Part shown: positions 4,253 through 21,481 of the stretch, piece after piece
Numbering within the stretch: the first letter of the stretch is position 1
Layout: every line of letters begins with the position of its first letter
Program-made: the position numbers and the translations under genes
The notes under the pieces: model-generated
The model's database searches: none
The model's input: the letters and a program-made list of their open reading frames with translations, nothing else
What the model was told of the DNA's origin: nothing
Assembly (NCBI RefSeq): GCF_000716785.1
Contig: NZ_JNYY01000016.1
Location: forward strand, 179,259 to 243,258
Source: Amycolatopsis vancoresmycina
Lineage (GTDB): Bacteria; Actinomycetota; Actinomycetes; Mycobacteriales; Pseudonocardiaceae
Direction: 5' to 3'
DNA: 64,000 nt

Positions 4253-5124
4253 TGCGGAAACCTTTCGAGCACGGGTGAGGGCGGCGCAGGGGCCGTCGAT
4301 GCGCGGGGAGAGCACATCCGGATCGGGCCTGCGACCAGGCGATTCACGAATTGCGATGGAGCAGCGGGCCGGTTCCGGCCGTCGACCCCCCGAGGCCGGG
4401 AACCGGTTCTTTTTGCCACTCGTTCAACAAATCGGCCCGGCGTGCCACCCGCCGGGCGAACCCGCTGGAACGAGCGCAAGACACAGTGATCCTTTCCACC
4501 CGGACCGCCGCGGCGAGACTCGGAAACAGTTCCGATATCGGCGGTCACCCCCGCGGTGCGATTGCGCACCAGCGACCGCCGAACGCGTGCGACAACCGGC
4601 GTTCTTCGTGCAACAGGTCGGTCATCCGGCCGTCAAGTACCCCCAAGACCAGCCGGATTGGCATCACGCTACCCAGAGAACGCGTTGCTCGTACCGCCGA
4701 ACGGAGCATTGGCGAAAATGTCCAAAAATCGCATCGCTAAGTCCGGACAGCGAGTAGTTCGTCGTCGATTTTTGTTCACTCTTCTGCCGGAAAATGTTAC
4801 CTCGATTGGGAGGTTTGAGTTTGCTGCAGTGCGCCTACCTGCACCGATCCGGCGCCAGCCGGGTGACGAGCGGAGCCAACCGGGCGGATACCCCTGCAGA
4901 AGCAAGTATCGAAATTCGTGGTCCACGTTACGGGACGTCACCCGATTGGCGGGTAACACGGACATCCGCGAAAAGATCGCGTCACGGATGCACCCGGCGC
5001 AGATCTTCACGGTCGCCGTCAAGCGGACAAACTTCACGCCGTAATGGTGACCCGGCGATTGCCGCGCCTTGCGACCCGCGGCCGGCTACCCCTACGGTCG
5101 GCGAGTCGACGAAGGGGAGGCGGC

Positions 5125-11415: not shown

Positions 11416-14228
<2,813 letters not shown>

Positions 14229-14253
14229 AATTTTCGTCGAGCGAAGGAACACC

Positions 14254-16227
14254 ATGTCGTTACGTTCGCCGGTCCTGGCGGCGGCCACCGCGGTCGCCGC
14301 CGGGGCGGCCGCGACCCTGGTCGCGCTGTCCGCCCCCGCCGCGGCCGCCACCGGCTGCTCAATCAGCTACACGAAGACGTCGGAGTGGCAGGGCGGGTTC
14401 GGCGCGTCCGTGTCGATCACCAACCTCGGTGACGCGGTCAGCGGCTGGACGCTCGAGTGGTCCTTCGCACCCGGCCAGCAGGTGGGCCAGCACTGGAACG
14501 CGACGCTCACCCAGGACGGCACGCAGGTGACCGCGAAGAACGTCGCCTACAACGCCGCCATCCCCACCGGCGGCAAGGCGGAGTTCGGGTTCAACGGCAC
14601 CTTCTCCGCGAGCAACCCGGTTCCCTCGTCGTTCCGGCTCAACGGCACCACGTGCACCGGCGGCGTCGACACGCCGACACCCACGACGACTCCCACCACC
14701 CCGACCACCACGACGACGCCGAACCAGCCGGGCACCTTCACGAACCCGGTGGTGTGGCAGGACTTCGCCGACGGCGACATCATCCGCGTCGGCGACACCT
14801 ACTACTACTCGGCCTCCACGATGCACTACTCGCCGGGCGCGCCGATCCTGCGCTCCTACGACCTGGTGCACTGGGAGTACGCCGGCCATTCGGTGCCGAA
14901 GCTGGACTTCGGCGCCAAGTACGACCTGAACGGCGGACGCGGGTACGTCCGCGGCATCTGGGCGTCGTTCCTCAACCACCGGGCGAGCAACAACACGTTC
15001 TACTGGGGTGGCTGCATCGACTTCGCCAAGACCTACATCTACACCGCCACCGCGGTGGACGGCCCGTGGTCGCGGCACACGACGATCGACAAGTGCTACT
15101 ACGACGCCGGGATGCTCATCGACGACGACGACACGATGTACGTCGCCTACGGCAACACCACCCTCAGCGTCGCCCAGCTGTCCCCCGACGGGAAGACGGA
15201 AGTCCGTTCGCAGCAGGTGTTCCAGACGCCGTCGAACATCGGCACCCTGGAGGGTTCGCGGTTCTACAAGCGCAACGGCAGCTACTACATCTTCGCCACG
15301 CGCCCGGCCAACGGCCAGTACGTCCTGAAGGCCAGCAACCCGTTCGGCCCCTACACCGTGCAGCAGGTGCTGCTGGACCTGCCGGGCCCGATCCAGGGCG
15401 GCGGCGTGCCGCACCAGGGCGGGCTGGTGCAGACGCAGAACGGCGACTGGTACTACATGGCTTTCGTCGACGCCTACCCCGGCGGGCGCGTCCCGGTGCT
15501 GGCCCCGATCACCTGGACGGCCGACGGCTGGCCGCGGCTGCAGACGGTCGACGGGCGCTGGGGCGTCACGTACCCGAAGCCGAACCTGCCGCCGCCACCC
15601 CGCCAGGTCGAGCCGATGACCGGCACGGACACCTTCCAGGGCACCGCGCTCGGGCCGCAGTGGGAGTGGAACCACAACCCGGACCCGGCGAAGTTCTCGG
15701 TCGGCAACGGGCTGAAACTGTCCACCGCCACGGTCACCAACGACCTGTATTCGGCCCGCAACACGCTGACCCGCCGCATCCAGGGCCCCACCTCCACCGC
15801 GACGGCCACGCTGGACCTGACGTCGATGCGGGACGGCGACCGGACCGGGCTCGCGATGCTGCGCGACTCGTCGGCGTGGATCGGTGTCAAGCGCGACGGC
15901 GGCCGCAACCGCGTCGTCATGGTCACCGGACTGACCATGGACGGGAACTGGAACACGACCGGCACCGGCACCGAGGTCGCGGCCGCGGACCTGCCGGGCA
16001 CGAAGATCTGGCTGCGCGCCAACGCCGACATCCGCCCCGGCACCGGACGGCAGGCCCGGTTCTCCTACAGAACGGACGGGGTGACGTTCACCCCGCTGGG
16101 CAGCGGGTTCACGCTGAACAACGCGTGGCAGTTCTTCATGGGCTACCGGTTCGCCGTGTTCGACTACGCGAGCCAGTCGCTCGGCGGCGCGGTCACCCTG
16201 CAGCGGTTCGACCTGACCACGCCGTAA
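14254..16227 (+). CDS. Secreted CBM2-GH43 beta-xylosidase/alpha-L-arabinofuranosidase with a C-terminal beta-sandwich
   Basis: After the signal peptide comes an N-terminal CBM2a (CSISYTKTSEWQGGFGASVSITN...NGTTCTGG) and a PT linker. The GH43 core (FADGDIIRVGDTYYYSASTMHY, EGSRFYKRNGSYYIF) is followed by a laminin-G-like C-terminal domain. Confidence 0.85.
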   Translation: MSLRSPVLAAATAVAAGAAATLVALSAPAAAATGCSISYTKTSEWQGGFGASVSITNLGDAVSGWTLEWSFAPGQQVGQHWNATLTQDGTQVTAKNVAYNAAIPTGGKAEFGFNGTFSASNPVPSSFRLNGTTCTGGVDTPTPTTTPTTPTTTTTPNQPGTFTNPVVWQDFADGDIIRVGDTYYYSASTMHYSPGAPILRSYDLVHWEYAGHSVPKLDFGAKYDLNGGRGYVRGIWASFLNHRASNNTFYWGGCIDFAKTYIYTATAVDGPWSRHTTIDKCYYDAGMLIDDDDTMYVAYGNTTLSVAQLSPDGKTEVRSQQVFQTPSNIGTLEGSRFYKRNGSYYIFATRPANGQYVLKASNPFGPYTVQQVLLDLPGPIQGGGVPHQGGLVQTQNGDWYYMAFVDAYPGGRVPVLAPITWTADGWPRLQTVDGRWGVTYPKPNLPPPPRQVEPMTGTDTFQGTALGPQWEWNHNPDPAKFSVGNGLKLSTATVTNDLYSARNTLTRRIQGPTSTATATLDLTSMRDGDRTGLAMLRDSSAWIGVKRDGGRNRVVMVTGLTMDGNWNTTGTGTEVAAADLPGTKIWLRANADIRPGTGRQARFSYRTDGVTFTPLGSGFTLNNAWQFFMGYRFAVFDYASQSLGGAVTLQRFDLTTP

Positions 16228-16360: not shown

Positions 16361-16390
16361 GGTGGCCGCCGCACCGGCCCGGCGGCCACC
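16361..16390. terminator. GC-rich hairpin between convergent genes (GH43 and the protease)
   Basis: GGTGGCCGCCG-caccggcc-CGGCGGCCACC is a perfect 11-bp stem with an 8-nt loop, lying 10 nt downstream of the protease stop. It has no U-tract, as is usual in actinomycetes. Confidence 0.3.
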
Positions 16391-16400
16391 CCTCGGCGGG

Positions 16401-17123
16401 CTACTTCCAGGACTCGATTTCGGCGATCACCTCCCGGGTCAGCCGCACCGCTTCGTTGGACTTCTTGTCCGCCGCCACCCCCGCGTGGATGCCCACGGCG
16501 GCGGGCGAGCGCTCCTCCAGGTACGGCGACACCGGGGCCCCGCTCTGCCCGCCGGAAGTGGAGATCCGGTAGTTCAGGATGCGGGTGCCCGGCGGGCTGA
16601 GCAGCTTGCCGCTGTCGTACCACAGCGAGTTCTCCGGCGCCTTGTCGTCGGGGTAGCCGGCGACCTGCCACGTCGCGGCCTCCAGGCCGGTGTCCGTCGC
16701 GGGAAGCATCTGGTACAGCGTCACCTCAGATGGCAGCGGCGCCGCCAGCCCGAGCAGGCAGTAGTCGTACGGCCGGCCGCCGGAGGGGTACTGCCCCGGG
16801 TAGGTCCACGCGGTCGCCTTGACCACGCCGAACGGCGTCCGGGTGGCGTCCCGGGCGGCCTGGAACGTCACCGCGACGGCCCGGCCGCCGTTGGCCTGCT
16901 TGTAGACCGCGTGGGCCGCGGTCACCACGTACCGCGGGGCGATGGCGAACCCGGTCGACTCCCAGATTTCGCCGTCGGGCATCGTCGCCGACACCAGGCC
17001 GAGGCCCGACCAGGGCGGCTGGGTGGTCTGCTGCACCCGCTCCCGGCCGTCGGGGTGGAACGGGATGCCGACCTGGGCGTGGGCGCGGACCGGCTGGTGG
17101 AACACGGGCAGGGTGGTCGTCAT
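16401..17123 (-). CDS. Cytosolic trypsin-like serine protease (S1 family, V8/Glu-specific-endopeptidase-like)
   Basis: It has a His motif TAAHAV and a Ser motif TSGGQSGAPV (the GxSGxP type), and no signal peptide (MTTTLPVFHQPVRAHAQ). A perfect SD (AAGGAGG) sits 6 nt upstream of the ATG at 17123. It lies 25 nt downstream of the 17149-18552 ORF, so the two form an operon. Its GC content (about 65%) is lower than the flanks. Confidence 0.75.
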   Translation of the reverse strand: MTTTLPVFHQPVRAHAQVGIPFHPDGRERVQQTTQPPWSGLGLVSATMPDGEIWESTGFAIAPRYVVTAAHAVYKQANGGRAVAVTFQAARDATRTPFGVVKATAWTYPGQYPSGGRPYDYCLLGLAAPLPSEVTLYQMLPATDTGLEAATWQVAGYPDDKAPENSLWYDSGKLLSPPGTRILNYRISTSGGQSGAPVSPYLEERSPAAVGIHAGVAADKKSNEAVRLTREVIAEIESWK

Positions 17124-17148
17124 GGCAGTCCTCCTTGGGGTTTCGCGG

Positions 17149-18552
17149 TCAGACCTTGACTCGCCGGGGTGCGGTCGAACGGCTCACGCGCGGCGCCGGC
17201 ACCAGGCCGCCGGTCACCATTTCCTCGACGCGCGCCAGTACGCGGTCGACCTCTTCCGGCGATGCCGCGGTGATTTCCGGGCTGCCGTCTTCGCGGATCC
17301 CGGCCACCGACGCGAATTCGGTGAGCGCCTGGGTGTTCAGGTACGAGACCATCGTCGAGTACTGCTGCGGCGTCCACTCCCCGGATTCGACCTTGGCCAT
17401 GTAGAGCAGCAGTTTCTTCCGCTTGGCCTCCTTTTCGGTGTTGATCCGCTGCTGCAGCCCGTCGTGCTTGGCCTTGGTGACGCAGCCCTGCTGCATCAGC
17501 TGCAGGTCGTAGAAGTGGCTCTCGGTCGACGCCGCGCACGGCACCGCCAGCGCCATCGAGCTGTTGAACCGGACCGGCATCATGCCCTCGAACGTCACCG
17601 TCTGGTCGAAGGTGATTTCCTGGTTGAAGAAGTTGCTGACGTACCCGACGTTGATCGACGTGGTGAACGGCAGCAGTTTCGACGCCCACTTCTCGTCTTT
17701 CGTGGGTTCCTGCGGGGTCGGGTTGGGTTCGAACTTGAACATCCCTTCGCCCGCGGTGATCTGCTTGTTGATCGCCTCGAAGAGGGTTTTGGTGCTGTTG
17801 AGCATCTGCCAGCCGAACTCGTTGCCGCCGCCGCCCTGGACGTACCGGATCTGGACGACGTTGTTCGTGATCAGGTCCTGGGTGATCTTGTCGATGCTGG
17901 TGCCCAGGTTGAACCAGCCGATGTTCAGCCCGACATCGACCTTCGTGCGGGTGTACTCCCAGACCCGCCGGAGGTCGGCGTGGATTTCGGCCACCCACGG
18001 GTCGGCGTAGAGCTCGGCCTCGCCGGAGAGGTTGATCGCGAAGTCCGGCCGCGGTTCCGCGTTGTCCTGCTCGCTGCCCACCAGTTCGGCGAACAGGCTG
18101 TTGCCGCTGCCGATCTGGTAGCCGGTGCTGGCGCCCAGCGACATCTCGTTGGGGAAGGTGGCCGAGCCGCCGGTGCCCATGTCCACGATGTGCTTGGCGA
18201 AGATCGGCTGCACGGTGACGTTGTTCAGCACCAGCGGCACCAGGTTGGGTTTCTTGACGCCGTAGACGTCCCCGATCACCTTGCTGATGTTGGCCCGCTG
18301 GGCCGTGGTGATCTCCGGCACGGCGGTCCCGGACAGGTTGCCGCCGACGCAGCTCTGGTAATCGCCGTTGCCCATGTCGACCCAGTACGGCTTGGCGTTG
18401 ATGCCGTAGTAGTCGACCTTGAAGTTGCGCAACGTCTCGCCGAGGACCGAATCGATCCGCAGCGGGAAGTAGTGGAACATGTCCTGCTTGTCCTTGTCCT
18501 GGTACGCGACGACGCCATCCGCCGCGGCAGGACGGTTGAGCCTTCCGGCCAT
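17149..18552 (-). CDS. Hypothetical Asn/Thr/Gly/Lys-rich protein of unknown function, low-GC and probably horizontally acquired
   Basis: The ATG at 18552 (MAGRLNRPAAADGVVAYQDKDKQDMFHYFPL) is preceded by GGGAG. It encodes 467 aa with about 58-60% GC against roughly 72% in the flanks. The overlapping 17120..18598 frame is Arg-rich junk. There is no signal peptide and I recognise no motif. It has a beta-rich central region with Ser/Gly/Thr alternating segments and an alpha-helical, Lys/Glu-rich C-terminal tail. Confidence 0.6.
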   Translation of the reverse strand: MAGRLNRPAAADGVVAYQDKDKQDMFHYFPLRIDSVLGETLRNFKVDYYGINAKPYWVDMGNGDYQSCVGGNLSGTAVPEITTAQRANISKVIGDVYGVKKPNLVPLVLNNVTVQPIFAKHIVDMGTGGSATFPNEMSLGASTGYQIGSGNSLFAELVGSEQDNAEPRPDFAINLSGEAELYADPWVAEIHADLRRVWEYTRTKVDVGLNIGWFNLGTSIDKITQDLITNNVVQIRYVQGGGGNEFGWQMLNSTKTLFEAINKQITAGEGMFKFEPNPTPQEPTKDEKWASKLLPFTTSINVGYVSNFFNQEITFDQTVTFEGMMPVRFNSSMALAVPCAASTESHFYDLQLMQQGCVTKAKHDGLQQRINTEKEAKRKKLLLYMAKVESGEWTPQQYSTMVSYLNTQALTEFASVAGIREDGSPEITAASPEEVDRVLARVEEMVTGGLVPAPRVSRSTAPRRVKV

Positions 18553-18967
18553 GGGAAACTCCCGAAACGAAGGAAAAGGTGAAGGGGCAGGTGCGCAATT
18601 TCGGTGGCCACCGGTTCCGCGCCTCATCGACGGTACGCAGAATTCGCGTGGCTCCATCAGTCCACGAACTGATGAGCTTCCCTCACCGCGGGTCACGACG
18701 GCTTCCCGATCGCCCGGGATTTCCCCCGGTCCGGCAGAATCGTGCCGCCAAGCGGACCGCTTTCCCCGTGGCGAGGCCACGGCGGCTTCCCCGCCCCGCC
18801 ACCGGAAACCGGGCCGGCACCCGCGCCGCCGCCCGGTGAACATCGCTGCTCCACGTGAGGGAAACGCTTACCGTTCGGGGAAATCCCGGCGCGGCGCGGG
18901 TCAGCGGTCCGCGTCCCGGTTACGCCACCCGGAGGACCGGCGCCGATCGATCCGGGTGGTTCCCGCG

Positions 18968-20167
18968 TCAGAACCCGAGCGCCGCCGCCAGCAACGCCGC
19001 CACCGCGGCCCGGTGTTCGGGCCGGTCCGCCCACCGCAGCAGCCTTCCGGCCTCCACCACCACGCCGAAACCCGCGTGCACCAGCACCCGCGCCTGGCGC
19101 GCGTCCAGCTCCGGGCGCGCCTCCCGCAACTGCTGCTCCCACACCGCGATGTGCTCGCGCTGCGCCGCCACCAGGGGGCGGCGCAGCGCCGCCGGGAGGC
19201 CCGCGATCTCCGCGTCGGCCACGCTGGTGAGCGCGTGGTGCTCGAAGCTGTAGGCCACGTAGGTCGCCGTCAGTGCGGCCAGCGCGTCGTGCGGGCCCGC
19301 CGTCCCGCGGACGTTGTGCTCGACCGCCTGGGCCAGCAGGCCCGCGGCCTGCAGGCAGGCCGCGGCCAGGATGTCGGCCTTGCCGGGGAAGTACCGGTAG
19401 AGCGCGGACGGCACCAGGCCCACCGCCTCGGCGATCCGGCCGTTCGTGACCGTGGCGAAGCCGTCCCGCTCGAACAGCGGGACGGCGGCCGCGAGGATCT
19501 CCGACCGGCGGGTGCGGGGCACGGGCGCGGCCGGGAGTTCGACGACGCGCGCGTTCGCCGCCGGAGCCGTCGCGGCCACGCGCAGCGCCGCCTCCTGCAG
19601 GAGGGTCTCGGCGCGGCGCTGGGCGATCGACGTGTGGTGCATCGTGACGGACCCGATCGCCCCGAGCGCGGCCACCGCCCGCAGCTGCTCGCCGGGCCAC
19701 GGGTGCGCGCGCCGCACGGCGTCCGCGACGCGGCCGACCACCGACGCGAACTTCGCCCGCAGCAGCCTGCGGTCCGCGCGTTCGAGGTACCGGGCTTCCC
19801 ACCGGTACACGCCACCGGACGCGCGGTGGGCGACGGTGACCCGGGTGACGGCGGCGAGGACGTCCGGCAGCCCGGCGTCCGCCGGGACCTCGCCGAGCGC
19901 CGCGACCAGCCGGTCCGCCATGACGTTCGCGCACTCGGCGAACAGCGCGTACTTGTTCGGGAAGTGCCGGTACAGGGCGGCCGCGGTGATGCCCACGCGC
20001 GCCGCGATCTCCTCCATCGACGCCGCGTGGTAGCCGCGCTCGCTGAACAGCGTGGCGCCCGCTTCGACGATGAGCTGCCGCCGGTTGCGCGGCCGGACGG
20101 CCGCGGCGGGCCCGGCCGTCACCGCGGCCGCCGGGGCGAGGTGCGCGGGGCCATGGGTGCCATCCAA
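18968..20167 (-). CDS. Tandem-duplicated TetR-family transcriptional regulator (two TetR_N HTH domains)
   Basis: The first HTH is LIVEAGATLFSERGYHAASMEEIAARVGITAAALYRHFPNKYALF and the second is EILAAAVPLFERDGFATVTNGRIAEAVGLVPSALYRYFPGKADIL. The overlapping 18693..20171(-) and 18479..20182(+) frames are artefacts. Confidence 0.8.
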   Translation of the reverse strand: MDGTHGPAHLAPAAAVTAGPAAAVRPRNRRQLIVEAGATLFSERGYHAASMEEIAARVGITAAALYRHFPNKYALFAECANVMADRLVAALGEVPADAGLPDVLAAVTRVTVAHRASGGVYRWEARYLERADRRLLRAKFASVVGRVADAVRRAHPWPGEQLRAVAALGAIGSVTMHHTSIAQRRAETLLQEAALRVAATAPAANARVVELPAAPVPRTRRSEILAAAVPLFERDGFATVTNGRIAEAVGLVPSALYRYFPGKADILAAACLQAAGLLAQAVEHNVRGTAGPHDALAALTATYVAYSFEHHALTSVADAEIAGLPAALRRPLVAAQREHIAVWEQQLREARPELDARQARVLVHAGFGVVVEAGRLLRWADRPEHRAAVAALLAAALGF

Positions 20168-20302: not shown

Positions 20303-21481
20303 ATGAGCAATCTCAGCAGGAGGAACGTCCTTACGCTCGGTGTCGCGCTGGGTCTGGTGAGCGCGGCGAGCGTCGTCCCCGCCTGGGCGGCCGGCGCCGC
20401 CGACCCGTGGTGGGTCTGGGACGACGAGGTGGACCGCCTGGTCGCGGGCCTCGTCGACGGCGGTCAGGTGCCCGCCGTCAACACCGCGCTGCGGTCGTGG
20501 GTGAACAACGGCGACCCGCTGCCCGCCGGGCTGCCGTCGGGCCTGGCCGGCTGGCTCGGGCGGGTGAACGGGCTGCCGTCCTGGGCCGACGCCGCGAAGC
20601 TGCGGCGCGCCGCCGACTTCAACCGCCGCAAGGACACCTACCTGTTCATGCTGTACGGCCTCGGCAGCGGCATCATGAGCACGGTCATCCCGCGGGAGGC
20701 CCGGTCGGTCTACTGGTCGGCGGGCGGGGCGAACATGCAGGACCGCGCGGCCAAGACGTTCACCTTCGGCTACGACCTCAGCGACCTCAACGCGTTCGAA
20801 CCCTCGGGCCAGTTCGTCGTCACGGCCAACAAGACTCGGCTGGTGCACGCGGCGGTCCGGCACCTGCTGCCGCAGTCACCGCACTGGCGGGCGGTCTCCG
20901 ACGAGCAGGTGCCGATCAGCAACGGCGACATCCTGGTCACCTTCCACAGCCTCGGCACCTTCGTGCACCGGAAGCTGCGCGAATGGCACGTCCCGATGTC
21001 GGCCGCCGACGAGGAGGCCTTCCTGCACCAGTGGCAGGTCGCCATCCACCTGCTCGGCGTGCGCGACGAGTTCATCCCGAAGACGTGGGCGGAGGCGGAC
21101 GCGCAGTCGGCCCAGGTGCTCACCCCGCTCCTGGCCCCGACGACCGAGGGCAAGGAGCTGGCCGAGGACCTGCTCGGGCTGACCGCGCAGATCGACCTCG
21201 GCGTCACCCGCGGGTTCCTCAACGAGTTCGTGCGGTACGTGCTCAGCGACGAGGTCGGCGACTGGCTCGGCCTGCGTCGCGACTACGCGGCCGCCGCGCT
21301 GGTGCGCACCGGGTGGCCCGCCTACATCGCGTTCCGCGAGGGCCTGCTGCCGATCGCCCCGGCGGGTTTCTACCTGTTCGACCAGTTCCTGCGCGCGATC
21401 GCCATGCTGTTCCTCAACAAGGCGTCGTCCCCGGCGAGCACGCCGATCACCATCCCGACCGGGAACCGGCCCGGCGCCTGA
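20303..21481 (+). CDS. Tat-secreted oxygenase of the MpaB/DUF2236 family (latex-clearing-protein-like)
   Basis: It has a twin-arginine signal (SRRNVLTLGVALGLVSAASVVPAWAAG). The size and the conserved HxxxPxxxxxW-type core are consistent with DUF2236 oxygenases, but this is a family-level call only. Confidence 0.55.
   Translation: MSNLSRRNVLTLGVALGLVSAASVVPAWAAGAADPWWVWDDEVDRLVAGLVDGGQVPAVNTALRSWVNNGDPLPAGLPSGLAGWLGRVNGLPSWADAAKLRRAADFNRRKDTYLFMLYGLGSGIMSTVIPREARSVYWSAGGANMQDRAAKTFTFGYDLSDLNAFEPSGQFVVTANKTRLVHAAVRHLLPQSPHWRAVSDEQVPISNGDILVTFHSLGTFVHRKLREWHVPMSAADEEAFLHQWQVAIHLLGVRDEFIPKTWAEADAQSAQVLTPLLAPTTEGKELAEDLLGLTAQIDLGVTRGFLNEFVRYVLSDEVGDWLGLRRDYAAAALVRTGWPAYIAFREGLLPIAPAGFYLFDQFLRAIAMLFLNKASSPASTPITIPTGNRPGA

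Follow-up and report, generated by a model that had tools for sequence, protein, structure and literature searches.

A rare orphan protein family joined to interchangeable proteases: a candidate protease-licensed effector module in Amycolatopsis vancoresmycina

Within a 64,000-nt stretch of the Amycolatopsis vancoresmycina genome (contig NZ_JNYY01000016.1 of assembly GCF_000716785.1, positions 179,259 to 243,258; hereafter, the window), two adjacent genes on the minus strand encode a protein of 467 amino acids (aa), here called A, and a serine protease of the trypsin fold (Table 1). We describe this gene pair, the uncharacterised family to which A belongs, and the proteases that accompany members of this family in other bacteria, and we consider the pair as a candidate module in which a dedicated protease would license a latent effector. 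Judged from their layout, the two genes make up a compact operon in which they are arranged head-to-tail. A Shine-Dalgarno sequence placed inside the short spacer implies co-transcription and coupled translation of A and the protease, and a GC-rich hairpin behind the protease gene (fold energy -37.3 kcal/mol, z-score -3.1, none of 200 shuffled sequences equally stable) is the likely terminator of the two-gene operon. An earlier reading made from the letters of the sequence and their open reading frames (ORFs), referred to below as the sequence-only reading, had called the same two minus-strand genes, with the 25-nt gap and the strong Shine-Dalgarno sequence before the protease; both ORFs were found with the expected lengths of 467 and 240 aa, and the spacing and the AAGGAGG motif can be read directly from the DNA.

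Table 1. Genes and candidate expression signals of the A-protease locus, in window coordinates
Feature	Position	Strand	Description	Basis
Gene A	17149-18552	minus	467-aa protein with ATG start; uncharacterised rare family	ORF and translation
Partner protease gene	16401-17123	minus	240-aa trypsin-fold S1B serine protease	Pfam, PDB sequence search, motifs
A-protease spacer	17124-17148		25 nt	read from sequence
Shine-Dalgarno AAGGAGG of the protease gene	17130-17136	minus	6 nt before the protease ATG, within the 25-nt spacer	read from sequence
GGGAG, ribosome-binding-site-like motif	18559-18563	minus	6 nt upstream of the A ATG	sequence; block conserved in orthologues
GC hairpin, stem GGTGGCCGCC / GGCGGCCACC	16361-16390	minus	11 nt past the protease stop, between convergent genes; likely terminator	
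Inverted repeat CATCAGT-N6-ACTGATG	18655-18674		candidate operator or promoter element	in a block invariant in 6/6 orthologous upstream regions
Second nearly invariant non-coding block GGGAAAGCGGTCCGCTTGGCGGCACGATTCTGCCGGACCGGGGGAAA	18715-18760 (approximate)			upstream alignment
Palindrome CGTGGCgagGCCACG	18767-18781		present at background frequency, not conserved	

The start of gene A was assigned to position 18552, as its homologues begin at the equivalent of the conserved MAGRLNR...AYQD segment. A longer ORF of 564 aa with a start at position 18843 was rejected as a non-coding upstream extension, because GC content is flat across the three codon positions of the additional stretch (0.67/0.70/0.72) and because orthologues carry indels of 10 and 22 nt in it, neither of which is a multiple of three.

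The protease matches the Pfam families Trypsin_2 (35 bits against a cut-off of 27.6, E = 2.9e-8) and Trypsin (E = 2e-5), and its catalytic residues H71, D120 and S194 are in place, in accordance with the S1 motifs recognised in the sequence-only reading. In a search of PDB sequences, its closest solved relatives are glutamyl endopeptidases of the S1B subfamily of MEROPS, namely the Bacillus intermedius enzyme BIEP (1p3c; E = 1.3e-9, residues 24-215), Esp of S. epidermidis and V8 of S. aureus, so that the earlier description of the protease as V8-like was reasonable. The alignment to these enzymes is nearly full length, and an N-terminal D-G-R-x-x-V motif and the catalytic triad are common to both. 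The aligned residues of the window protease include a Thr and a His that presumably line the S1 pocket, as in the Glu-specific members of S1B. Glu specificity is a reasonable candidate property of the window protease, the identity of only ~25% to the S1B enzymes being too low to establish it. Weak matches of the protease to the Avs1b, LmuA and reverse transcriptase-protease domains of PADLOC and NCBIfam reflect the shared trypsin fold only.

The S1B glutamyl endopeptidases are made with signal peptide and propeptide, leave the cell and act outside it, whereas the window protease lacks a signal peptide and is bound up with a single partner inside the cell. Hydropathy analysis revealed no hydrophobic N-terminus, signal peptide or transmembrane (TM) segment in either A or the protease (KD19 maximum ~1.1), which agrees with the earlier remark that the protease is signal-less, and both proteins are predicted to be cytoplasmic. 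Residue 24 of the window protease aligns with residue 5 of the mature Bacillus enzyme, which leaves about 19 extra residues at its N-terminus. The Glu-binding pocket of S1B enzymes is formed in part by the processed N-terminus, and both V8 and BIEP are made as pro-enzymes. Because the N-terminal extension of the window protease lies where its Glu-specific relatives need a free processed N-terminus, the protease may plausibly be a zymogen itself.

Protein A, in which the sequence-only reading had recognised no motif, indeed has no match in the hidden Markov model (HMM) libraries of Pfam, NCBIfam, PADLOC and PHROGs, even at E <= 1, and a profile built from 56 of its homologues produced only noise against all PDB sequences (E >= 0.96). 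The family is rare: when 1.84 billion cluster representatives were searched exhaustively with an HMM, only 118 proteins were retrieved, of which ~95 are full length, and these are named in databases as hypothetical proteins or, in the case of fusions, as trypsin-like serine peptidases. Our literature searches returned general work on protease-effector systems and no description of this family, which appears to be undescribed in the libraries and literature searched.

Conservation of A is high over residues 1 to ~412 and then collapses, leaving a variable C-terminal region of ~55 residues. The invariant positions are mostly Gly, Pro, Phe, Tyr and Trp, plus two cysteines (C339 and C357), and no plausible catalytic constellation was found among them; this composition of the invariant residues speaks for a role in structure or assembly and against an enzymatic one. 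Structure prediction by AlphaFold2 (AF2) yielded a mean confidence (pLDDT) of 80.9 with a weak middle part from 56 sequences, and a pLDDT of 88.5 with a pTM of 0.78 from 100 sequences. The model is beta-rich, with very long strands at residues 168-193 and 314-336 followed by a 30-residue Lys/Glu-rich helix at 360-390, and residues 330-450, including the variable C-terminal element, are modelled confidently (pLDDT >90). The tail itself is modelled as a hairpin (414-429), a helix (432-447) and a disordered end (448-467). The predicted secondary structure is thus in agreement with the beta-rich core, the C-terminal Lys/Glu-rich helix and the variable tail proposed from the letters. No fold neighbour of the model was found, be it a gasdermin, a MACPF/CDC or aerolysin-type protein, an HK97-like capsid or an enzyme. 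The likeness to gasdermins raised in the sequence-only reading was therefore borne out neither by the sequence of A nor by its predicted fold; the same holds for a phage capsid or housekeeping identity, which that reading had named as speaking against its proposal (no PHROGs match, and no match to a capsid or other fold).

We further compared the surroundings of A in 66 loci from genomes and metagenomes (numbered with L), complemented by protein matches (numbered with P), in each case viewed from A. A homologue of the S1B-type window protease is encoded immediately downstream of A, as in the window itself, in L001-L006, L009, L012, L013, L029, L034, L035 and L048, and immediately upstream of A in Archangium (L025). 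In other members, the protease is fused to the C-terminus of A (loci L007/L036, L008, L026, L038-40 and L043-45; proteins P0016, P0018-20, P0022-24, P0031, P0035 and P0042), and such A-protease fusions of ~700 aa are found in Burkholderia, Paraburkholderia, Zavarzinella and several metagenomic lineages. Besides the S1B type, a YopT-like Peptidase_C58 domain is fused to A in L015, a metagenome-assembled genome (MAG) of the Cytophagales (30.3 bits, with the C/H/D triad visible), and an AvrRpt2-like C70/C39 domain of the papain fold is fused to A in P0050, P0057, L049 and L051. Among the metagenomic A-C70/C39 fusions, one copy is frameshifted just after the A core (L050:3040-3570, compared with L051:5159-5968), which reflects a pseudogene or else a faulty assembly. 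Three tandem A paralogues with 33-51% identity to one another are followed in a Blastocatellia MAG (L019:2301-8498) by two serine proteases of the Nal1/S64-like kind that have a GDSGS motif, and in L037 a trypsin-like gene follows A. By inspection, the extension of P0044 has a His-Gly...Ala-Ser-Cys pattern of the caspase/CHAT-like kind (weak DUF4347 match). Finally, Archangium violaceum possesses a protease gene, followed by A and by a 564-aa A paralogue with an extra C-terminal extension of ~120 aa (L025:6812-11201).

The protease partner has thus been swapped among at least four recognisable families, S1B, Nal1-like, C58 and C70/C39, and A alone is the partner that stays constant throughout. 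By our own count, a recognisable protease is present in ~70% of the non-redundant loci of the cytoplasmic type. Adjacency of A and a protease recurs in more than 20 independent loci and fusions occur in several phyla, so the pair is co-conserved, a point that the sequence-only reading had left to a neighbourhood analysis. That reading had likened the pair to a protoxin with its activator, or to a gasdermin with its protease; the functional coupling is upheld by the co-conservation, the fusions and the protease swapping, whereas the homology to gasdermins is not. Across 10 loci, sequence identities of A and of the protease co-vary (Spearman 0.88, p = 0.0009), with the protease evolving faster and A being far more conserved. 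Chance neighbourhood, in which the two genes would be unrelated and the low GC content of A would mark nothing, conflicts with the fusions, the independent adjacencies and the co-varying divergence, and its probability is negligible.

Sensor-effector defence proteins, too, typically combine a constant N-terminal module with an enzymatic C-terminal domain that can be swapped. According to an alternative of this kind, A would be a sensor or regulator that recognises a cellular target or a ligand derived from phage or stress, and the protease would be the effector degrading host or invader proteins. It is in keeping with a protease that is a bare catalytic domain without its own sensor, as well as with the extensions of P0047, P0056, L047 and L048 and the NUDIX neighbours in L031 and L026/27, none of which are recognisable proteases. 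However, every identifiable swapped domain is a protease, and these domains represent four or five unrelated folds, which points to a common partner that is cleaved rather than to diverse killing chemistries. Moreover, a sister branch of exported A proteins has no enzymatic partner, so that A must act on its own there. Overall, we regard a sensor role of A as unlikely.

This sister branch accounts for ~17-20 of the ~95 full-length representatives, which carry a Sec signal peptide with a predicted cleavage site, AxA|AP[KH]F[SY], abutting the first conserved residues of the A domain. The exported proteins are distant (30-36% identity) and have no protease partner. Directly downstream of them, a homologous lipoprotein-like gene of ~160-190 aa with a lipobox-like ...GC motif is located in 11 independent loci (L017, L018, L020, L021, L022, L054, L055, L056, L058, L062 and L065); its product belongs to no Pfam family. 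The exported branch shows that A can function by itself, with no need for the protease, and that the A fold serves on either side of the cytoplasmic membrane.

Both observations bear on the possibility that A is merely a very large folding or inhibitory pro-region, acting in cis or in trans, of a protease with another job such as protein turnover or nutrition. In the fusions A is N-terminal to the protease, where pro-regions sit, the gene order mimics this arrangement, and a pro-enzyme state is familiar from the S1B relatives V8 and BIEP. Nevertheless, a single pro-region of 450 aa would have to serve the serine-trypsin, Nal1-like, C58 and C70/C39 folds, and A would be a pro-region conserved far better than its protease. 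It also occurs without a protease in several cytoplasmic loci and in the exported branch, and as tandem paralogues in L019 and L025. Given an exported branch that combines the absence of a protease with a conserved lipoprotein, A is not merely a protease pro-domain, and we consider this explanation very improbable.

The exported branch also brings up the alternative that A acts outside the cytoplasm, as an antibacterial or anti-eukaryote toxin or as an envelope or extracellular assembly, with the signal-less members leaving the cell by a non-classical exit and the protease maturing A. Such a role would be likened to that of protoxin-processing proteases and of the autoprocessing cysteine-protease domains of large toxins. 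The signal peptides of the exported representatives speak for it, the lipoprotein encoded downstream could confer immunity or serve as an anchor, and the two invariant cysteines suggest a disulfide. In addition, C58 and C70 are known as secreted effector protease families according to their Pfam descriptions, and in Paraburkholderia the copy is surrounded by transposases and an integrase and has a lipase gene beside it. By contrast, A of the window and all protease-linked members lack a signal peptide, a TM segment and any secretion-system marker; no recurrent secretion-system genes were found in eight annotated neighbourhoods, and no consistent immunity-like gene follows the protease-linked forms. 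Action outside the cytoplasm is, in our assessment, quite unlikely for the protease-linked proteins.

We favour, at a probability of about one half, the reading that the two genes make up a module complete in itself, with A as its constant effector and the protease as an enzyme dedicated to processing or licensing A. For a constant, non-enzymatic protein that has repeatedly been joined to proteases of unrelated folds, this is the most economical assignment of roles. A constant non-enzymatic partner combined with swapping of protease classes is the pattern of known protease-effector modules (PMC12642450), and in gasdermins, Pepco/Trypco, EACC1 and other modules a specific cut unleashes a latent effector (PMC12642450; PMC7159879). 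A shows the persistent adjacency or fusion and the interchange of protease classes that characterise such modules. Two further characteristics, a protease linked to a sensor and a defence-island context, were not found, the window protease being a bare 240-aa domain.

We infer the role of A as the substrate, the position of the cut, the activation by cleavage, the resulting membrane damage or toxicity, and the trigger, and the following sequence of events would be conceivable. Both proteins would be made in the cytoplasm from one transcript, with full-length A being held inactive and the S1B protease perhaps itself being held as a zymogen by its N-terminal extension. The protease would then cut A in its poorly conserved C-terminal region (residues ~413-467) or, in the fusions, in the linker between A and the protease. 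Cleaved A would change its state, most likely by oligomerising or by attacking a membrane, and the cell would be poisoned, arrested in growth or lysed, which might amount to abortive infection or programmed cell death in bacteria that are mostly soil-dwelling and often multicellular. In the fusions, a cut at the mature N-terminus of the protease would free A and activate the protease together, creating a self-amplifying switch. What suggests membrane attack or pore formation is analogy, the long beta-strands of the model and the lipoprotein-guarded exported branch, and we hold the membrane activity of A to be a rather doubtful part of the proposal.

Several observations weigh against the licensing of A by its protease or against the proposed outcome. 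First, A has no similarity to any known pore-former, membrane attack being argued by analogy. Second, ~30% of the cytoplasmic-type loci have no recognisable protease (L010, L011, L016, L023, L031, L033, L042 and L046), examples being those of Streptomyces (L023), Hoeflea (L031) and Clostridium (L016). Third, the second and third A copies of L019 lack the C-terminal tail proposed as the cleavage target, and the length of this tail does not differ between the protease-linked and the exported branches. Fourth, the invariant C339 and C357 would better suit an extracytoplasmic protein. The genomic context is no more supportive of a role in defence: neither on the protease nor consistently nearby in the eight annotated neighbourhoods was a sensor domain (STAND, TPR, WD40 etc.) found, which sets the pair apart from the majority of defence modules of the protease-effector type characterised so far, and these neighbourhoods contain no recurrent defence genes and form no consistent defence islands. 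No copy of A was identified by tblastn in 50,697 phage records (INPHARED) or 72,556 plasmids (PLSDB), nor by a pattern scan of IMG/VR, and in the window the pair is located between GH43 glycosidase genes and a TetR gene.

Among known systems, bacterial gasdermins (bGSDM) resemble the A-protease pair in being non-enzymatic proteins encoded beside a dedicated protease whose class varies by lineage (serine trypsin-like, cysteine caspase-like or papain-like). In both cases, a poorly conserved C-terminal region could be an inhibitory cleavable element, and both systems are found preferentially in soil-dwelling and multicellular bacteria. However, A has no bGSDM match in PADLOC or Pfam at E <= 1, and its predicted model lacks the twisted beta-sheet core of the solved bGSDM structures. 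The pore formers Pepco (Trypco1/2) and EACC1 (Evans et al. 2025 preprint, PMC12642450) are likewise of unknown fold, and were discovered through their linkage to proteases of the trypsin-like or cysteine kind. A single specific cut, in Pepco the removal of a C-terminal tail, activates them, and they are common in Actinobacteria and cyanobacteria; Pepco has 117 aa, and EACC1 is a small protein that is cut into fragments of 5.7 and 7.1 kDa (PMC12642450). In contrast, A is four times larger, with 467 aa, and has no Pfam Trypco match at E <= 1, and the proteases of Pepco and EACC1 are fused to Avs/STAND or other sensors, whereas the window protease has none.

Autoprocessing and polymorphic toxins with C-terminal peptidases of the C58 (YopT-like) or C70 (AvrRpt2-like) type share with A a constant N-terminus, variable C-terminal peptidases and a patchy, horizontally mobile distribution. 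A differs from polymorphic toxins in that a secretion or trafficking domain cannot be recognised and an immunity gene is not consistently present, and the identifiable variable domains on A are all peptidases, whereas those toxins carry mixed chemistries. The protease-linked branch shows no signal peptide or TM segment and no recurrent downstream gene except the protease, and a secreted toxin is conceivable only for the exported sister branch with its lipoprotein partner. We file the A-protease pair among the protease-licensed effectors, with an effector of a novel predicted fold.

The sequence-only reading had taken the base composition of the pair as a sign of horizontal acquisition, estimating the GC content of A at 58-60% and that of the protease at ~65%. 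The computed values are 64.0% for A and 72.5% for the protease, compared with a mean of 71.8% for the window, so the protease is not deviant. Even so, no other 1.4-kb stretch of the window is as poor in GC as A (minimum 62.9% vs 71.8 +/- 2.6%). The GC content at third codon positions (GC3) is 0.932 for A and 0.97 for the protease, against a mean of 0.928 +/- 0.029 in the 32 long coding ORFs of the window, and the combined share of Lys, Asn, Ile, Phe, Tyr and Met in A (0.238) is the highest among the window ORFs (0.137 +/- 0.048). The native GC3 and the high share of these amino acids indicate that the GC dip is due to amino-acid composition in native codons rather than to foreign codon usage; it is no signature of recent transfer, and horizontal acquisition cannot be read from GC content here. 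Elsewhere in the window, an apparently non-coding region of ~550 bp (~4400-4950) with AT-rich runs contains the lowest-GC 500-bp bin (0.608).

An alignment of the upstream regions of A from six orthologous Amycolatopsis loci demonstrated a mean column identity of 79%. The perfect inverted repeat CGTGGCgagGCCACG, which the sequence-only reading had proposed as an operator, is present where it was described; its operator role was not supported. The window contains 171 inverted repeats with 7-bp arms, which corresponds to ~1.1 expected per 415 bp, the fold z-score of this palindrome is unexceptional (-0.67), and it is replaced by unrelated sequence in 5/5 orthologous Amycolatopsis upstream regions, so it is probably not part of the system. 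A better candidate operator or promoter element is the repeat CATCAGT-N6-ACTGATG, located ~100 nt upstream of the A start in an invariant block and predicted to fold with -14.3 kcal/mol (z-score -1.8). A search of Rfam for regulatory RNAs upstream of A returned nothing relevant at E <= 1. The neighbouring TetR gene was considered as a regulator of the module and rejected as a conserved part of it, because outside the closest Amycolatopsis relatives it does not accompany the pair, being reduced to a remnant in L005 and absent elsewhere. This gene (18968-20167, minus strand) encodes a duplicated TetR regulator of 399 aa, in which TetR_N occurs twice, and is divergent to an MpaB/Lcp-like oxygenase gene (20303-21481, plus strand); these two genes probably form their own regulatory unit, unrelated to the A-protease pair. 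On the other side, at 12228-16227 on the plus strand, the consecutive genes of two large proteins converge on the protease gene. By eye, these proteins look secreted and glycoside-hydrolase-like, with a beta-propeller type of architecture, Thr/Pro linkers and a carbohydrate-binding-like module.

Members of the A family occur sporadically in Actinomycetota, Pseudomonadota, Myxococcota, Planctomycetota, Bacteroidota, Bacillota, Cyanobacteriota, Armatimonadota, Acidobacteriota and Gemmatimonadota. Synteny around the pair extends no further than the nearest Amycolatopsis genomes (L001-L004); in L005, L006 and L009 the pair occupies other contexts. This patchy phyletic distribution, together with the differing contexts, supports mobility of the pair over long timescales. 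For example, in Paraburkholderia (L026:2898-9727) the fusion gene is found among IS21 and DDE transposases and a phage-integrase fragment and adjoins a Lipase_3 gene that is also kept in L027, a context that suggests carriage on a mobile island in this genus. A NUDIX gene lies directly downstream of the same fusion (L026:12218-12895; also in L027), and another directly downstream of A in Hoeflea (L031:8484-9131), where there is no protease. The Hoeflea and Paraburkholderia NUDIX proteins are 34% identical over 91 aa and may be a recurrent third component or a coincidence. In L011, a protease-less A homologue is directly followed by two overlapping ORFs of 185 and 126 aa (L011:7434-8368, minus strand), which by eye resemble an AbiE-type toxin-antitoxin pair of a nucleotidyltransferase and a helix-turn-helix protein. 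Finally, in Streptomyces sp. CSDS2 a 1029-aa NB-ARC (STAND-type) protein is encoded ~3 kb upstream of the A homologue (L023:955-4044; weak Pfam match), and a 385-aa protein without a family directly downstream of A; the NB-ARC protein is a possible sensor link in this single lineage.

A picture is emerging in which protease-licensed effectors such as gasdermins, Pepco, EACC1 and metallo-beta-lactamase (MBL) nucleases follow a logic that dominates bacterial immunity and programmed death and from which eukaryotic pyroptosis stems. The A family would be a so far undescribed and unusual member of this company, as it has no domain or fold relative that could be recognised, is joined to at least four unrelated protease families, and occurs in a sensor-less form simple enough for direct reconstitution. 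Speculatively, and with the odds rather against it, A could represent a new structural class of protease-activated cell-death executioner that would parallel gasdermins, Pepco and EACC1 in function while having an unrelated, previously unseen fold of ~410 residues, built as a sensor-less two-component or fused switch in which a cut in the linker matures a Glu-specific protease and frees A, and with a lipoprotein-restrained exported branch that acts from the periplasmic side. If A is membrane-active or toxic, it would add a new fold to the regulated cell-killing proteins and would raise the question of how a protease switch without a sensor is triggered. If it is instead an exported toxin or assembly, it would still constitute an unannotated and widely scattered family with a clean genetic handle.

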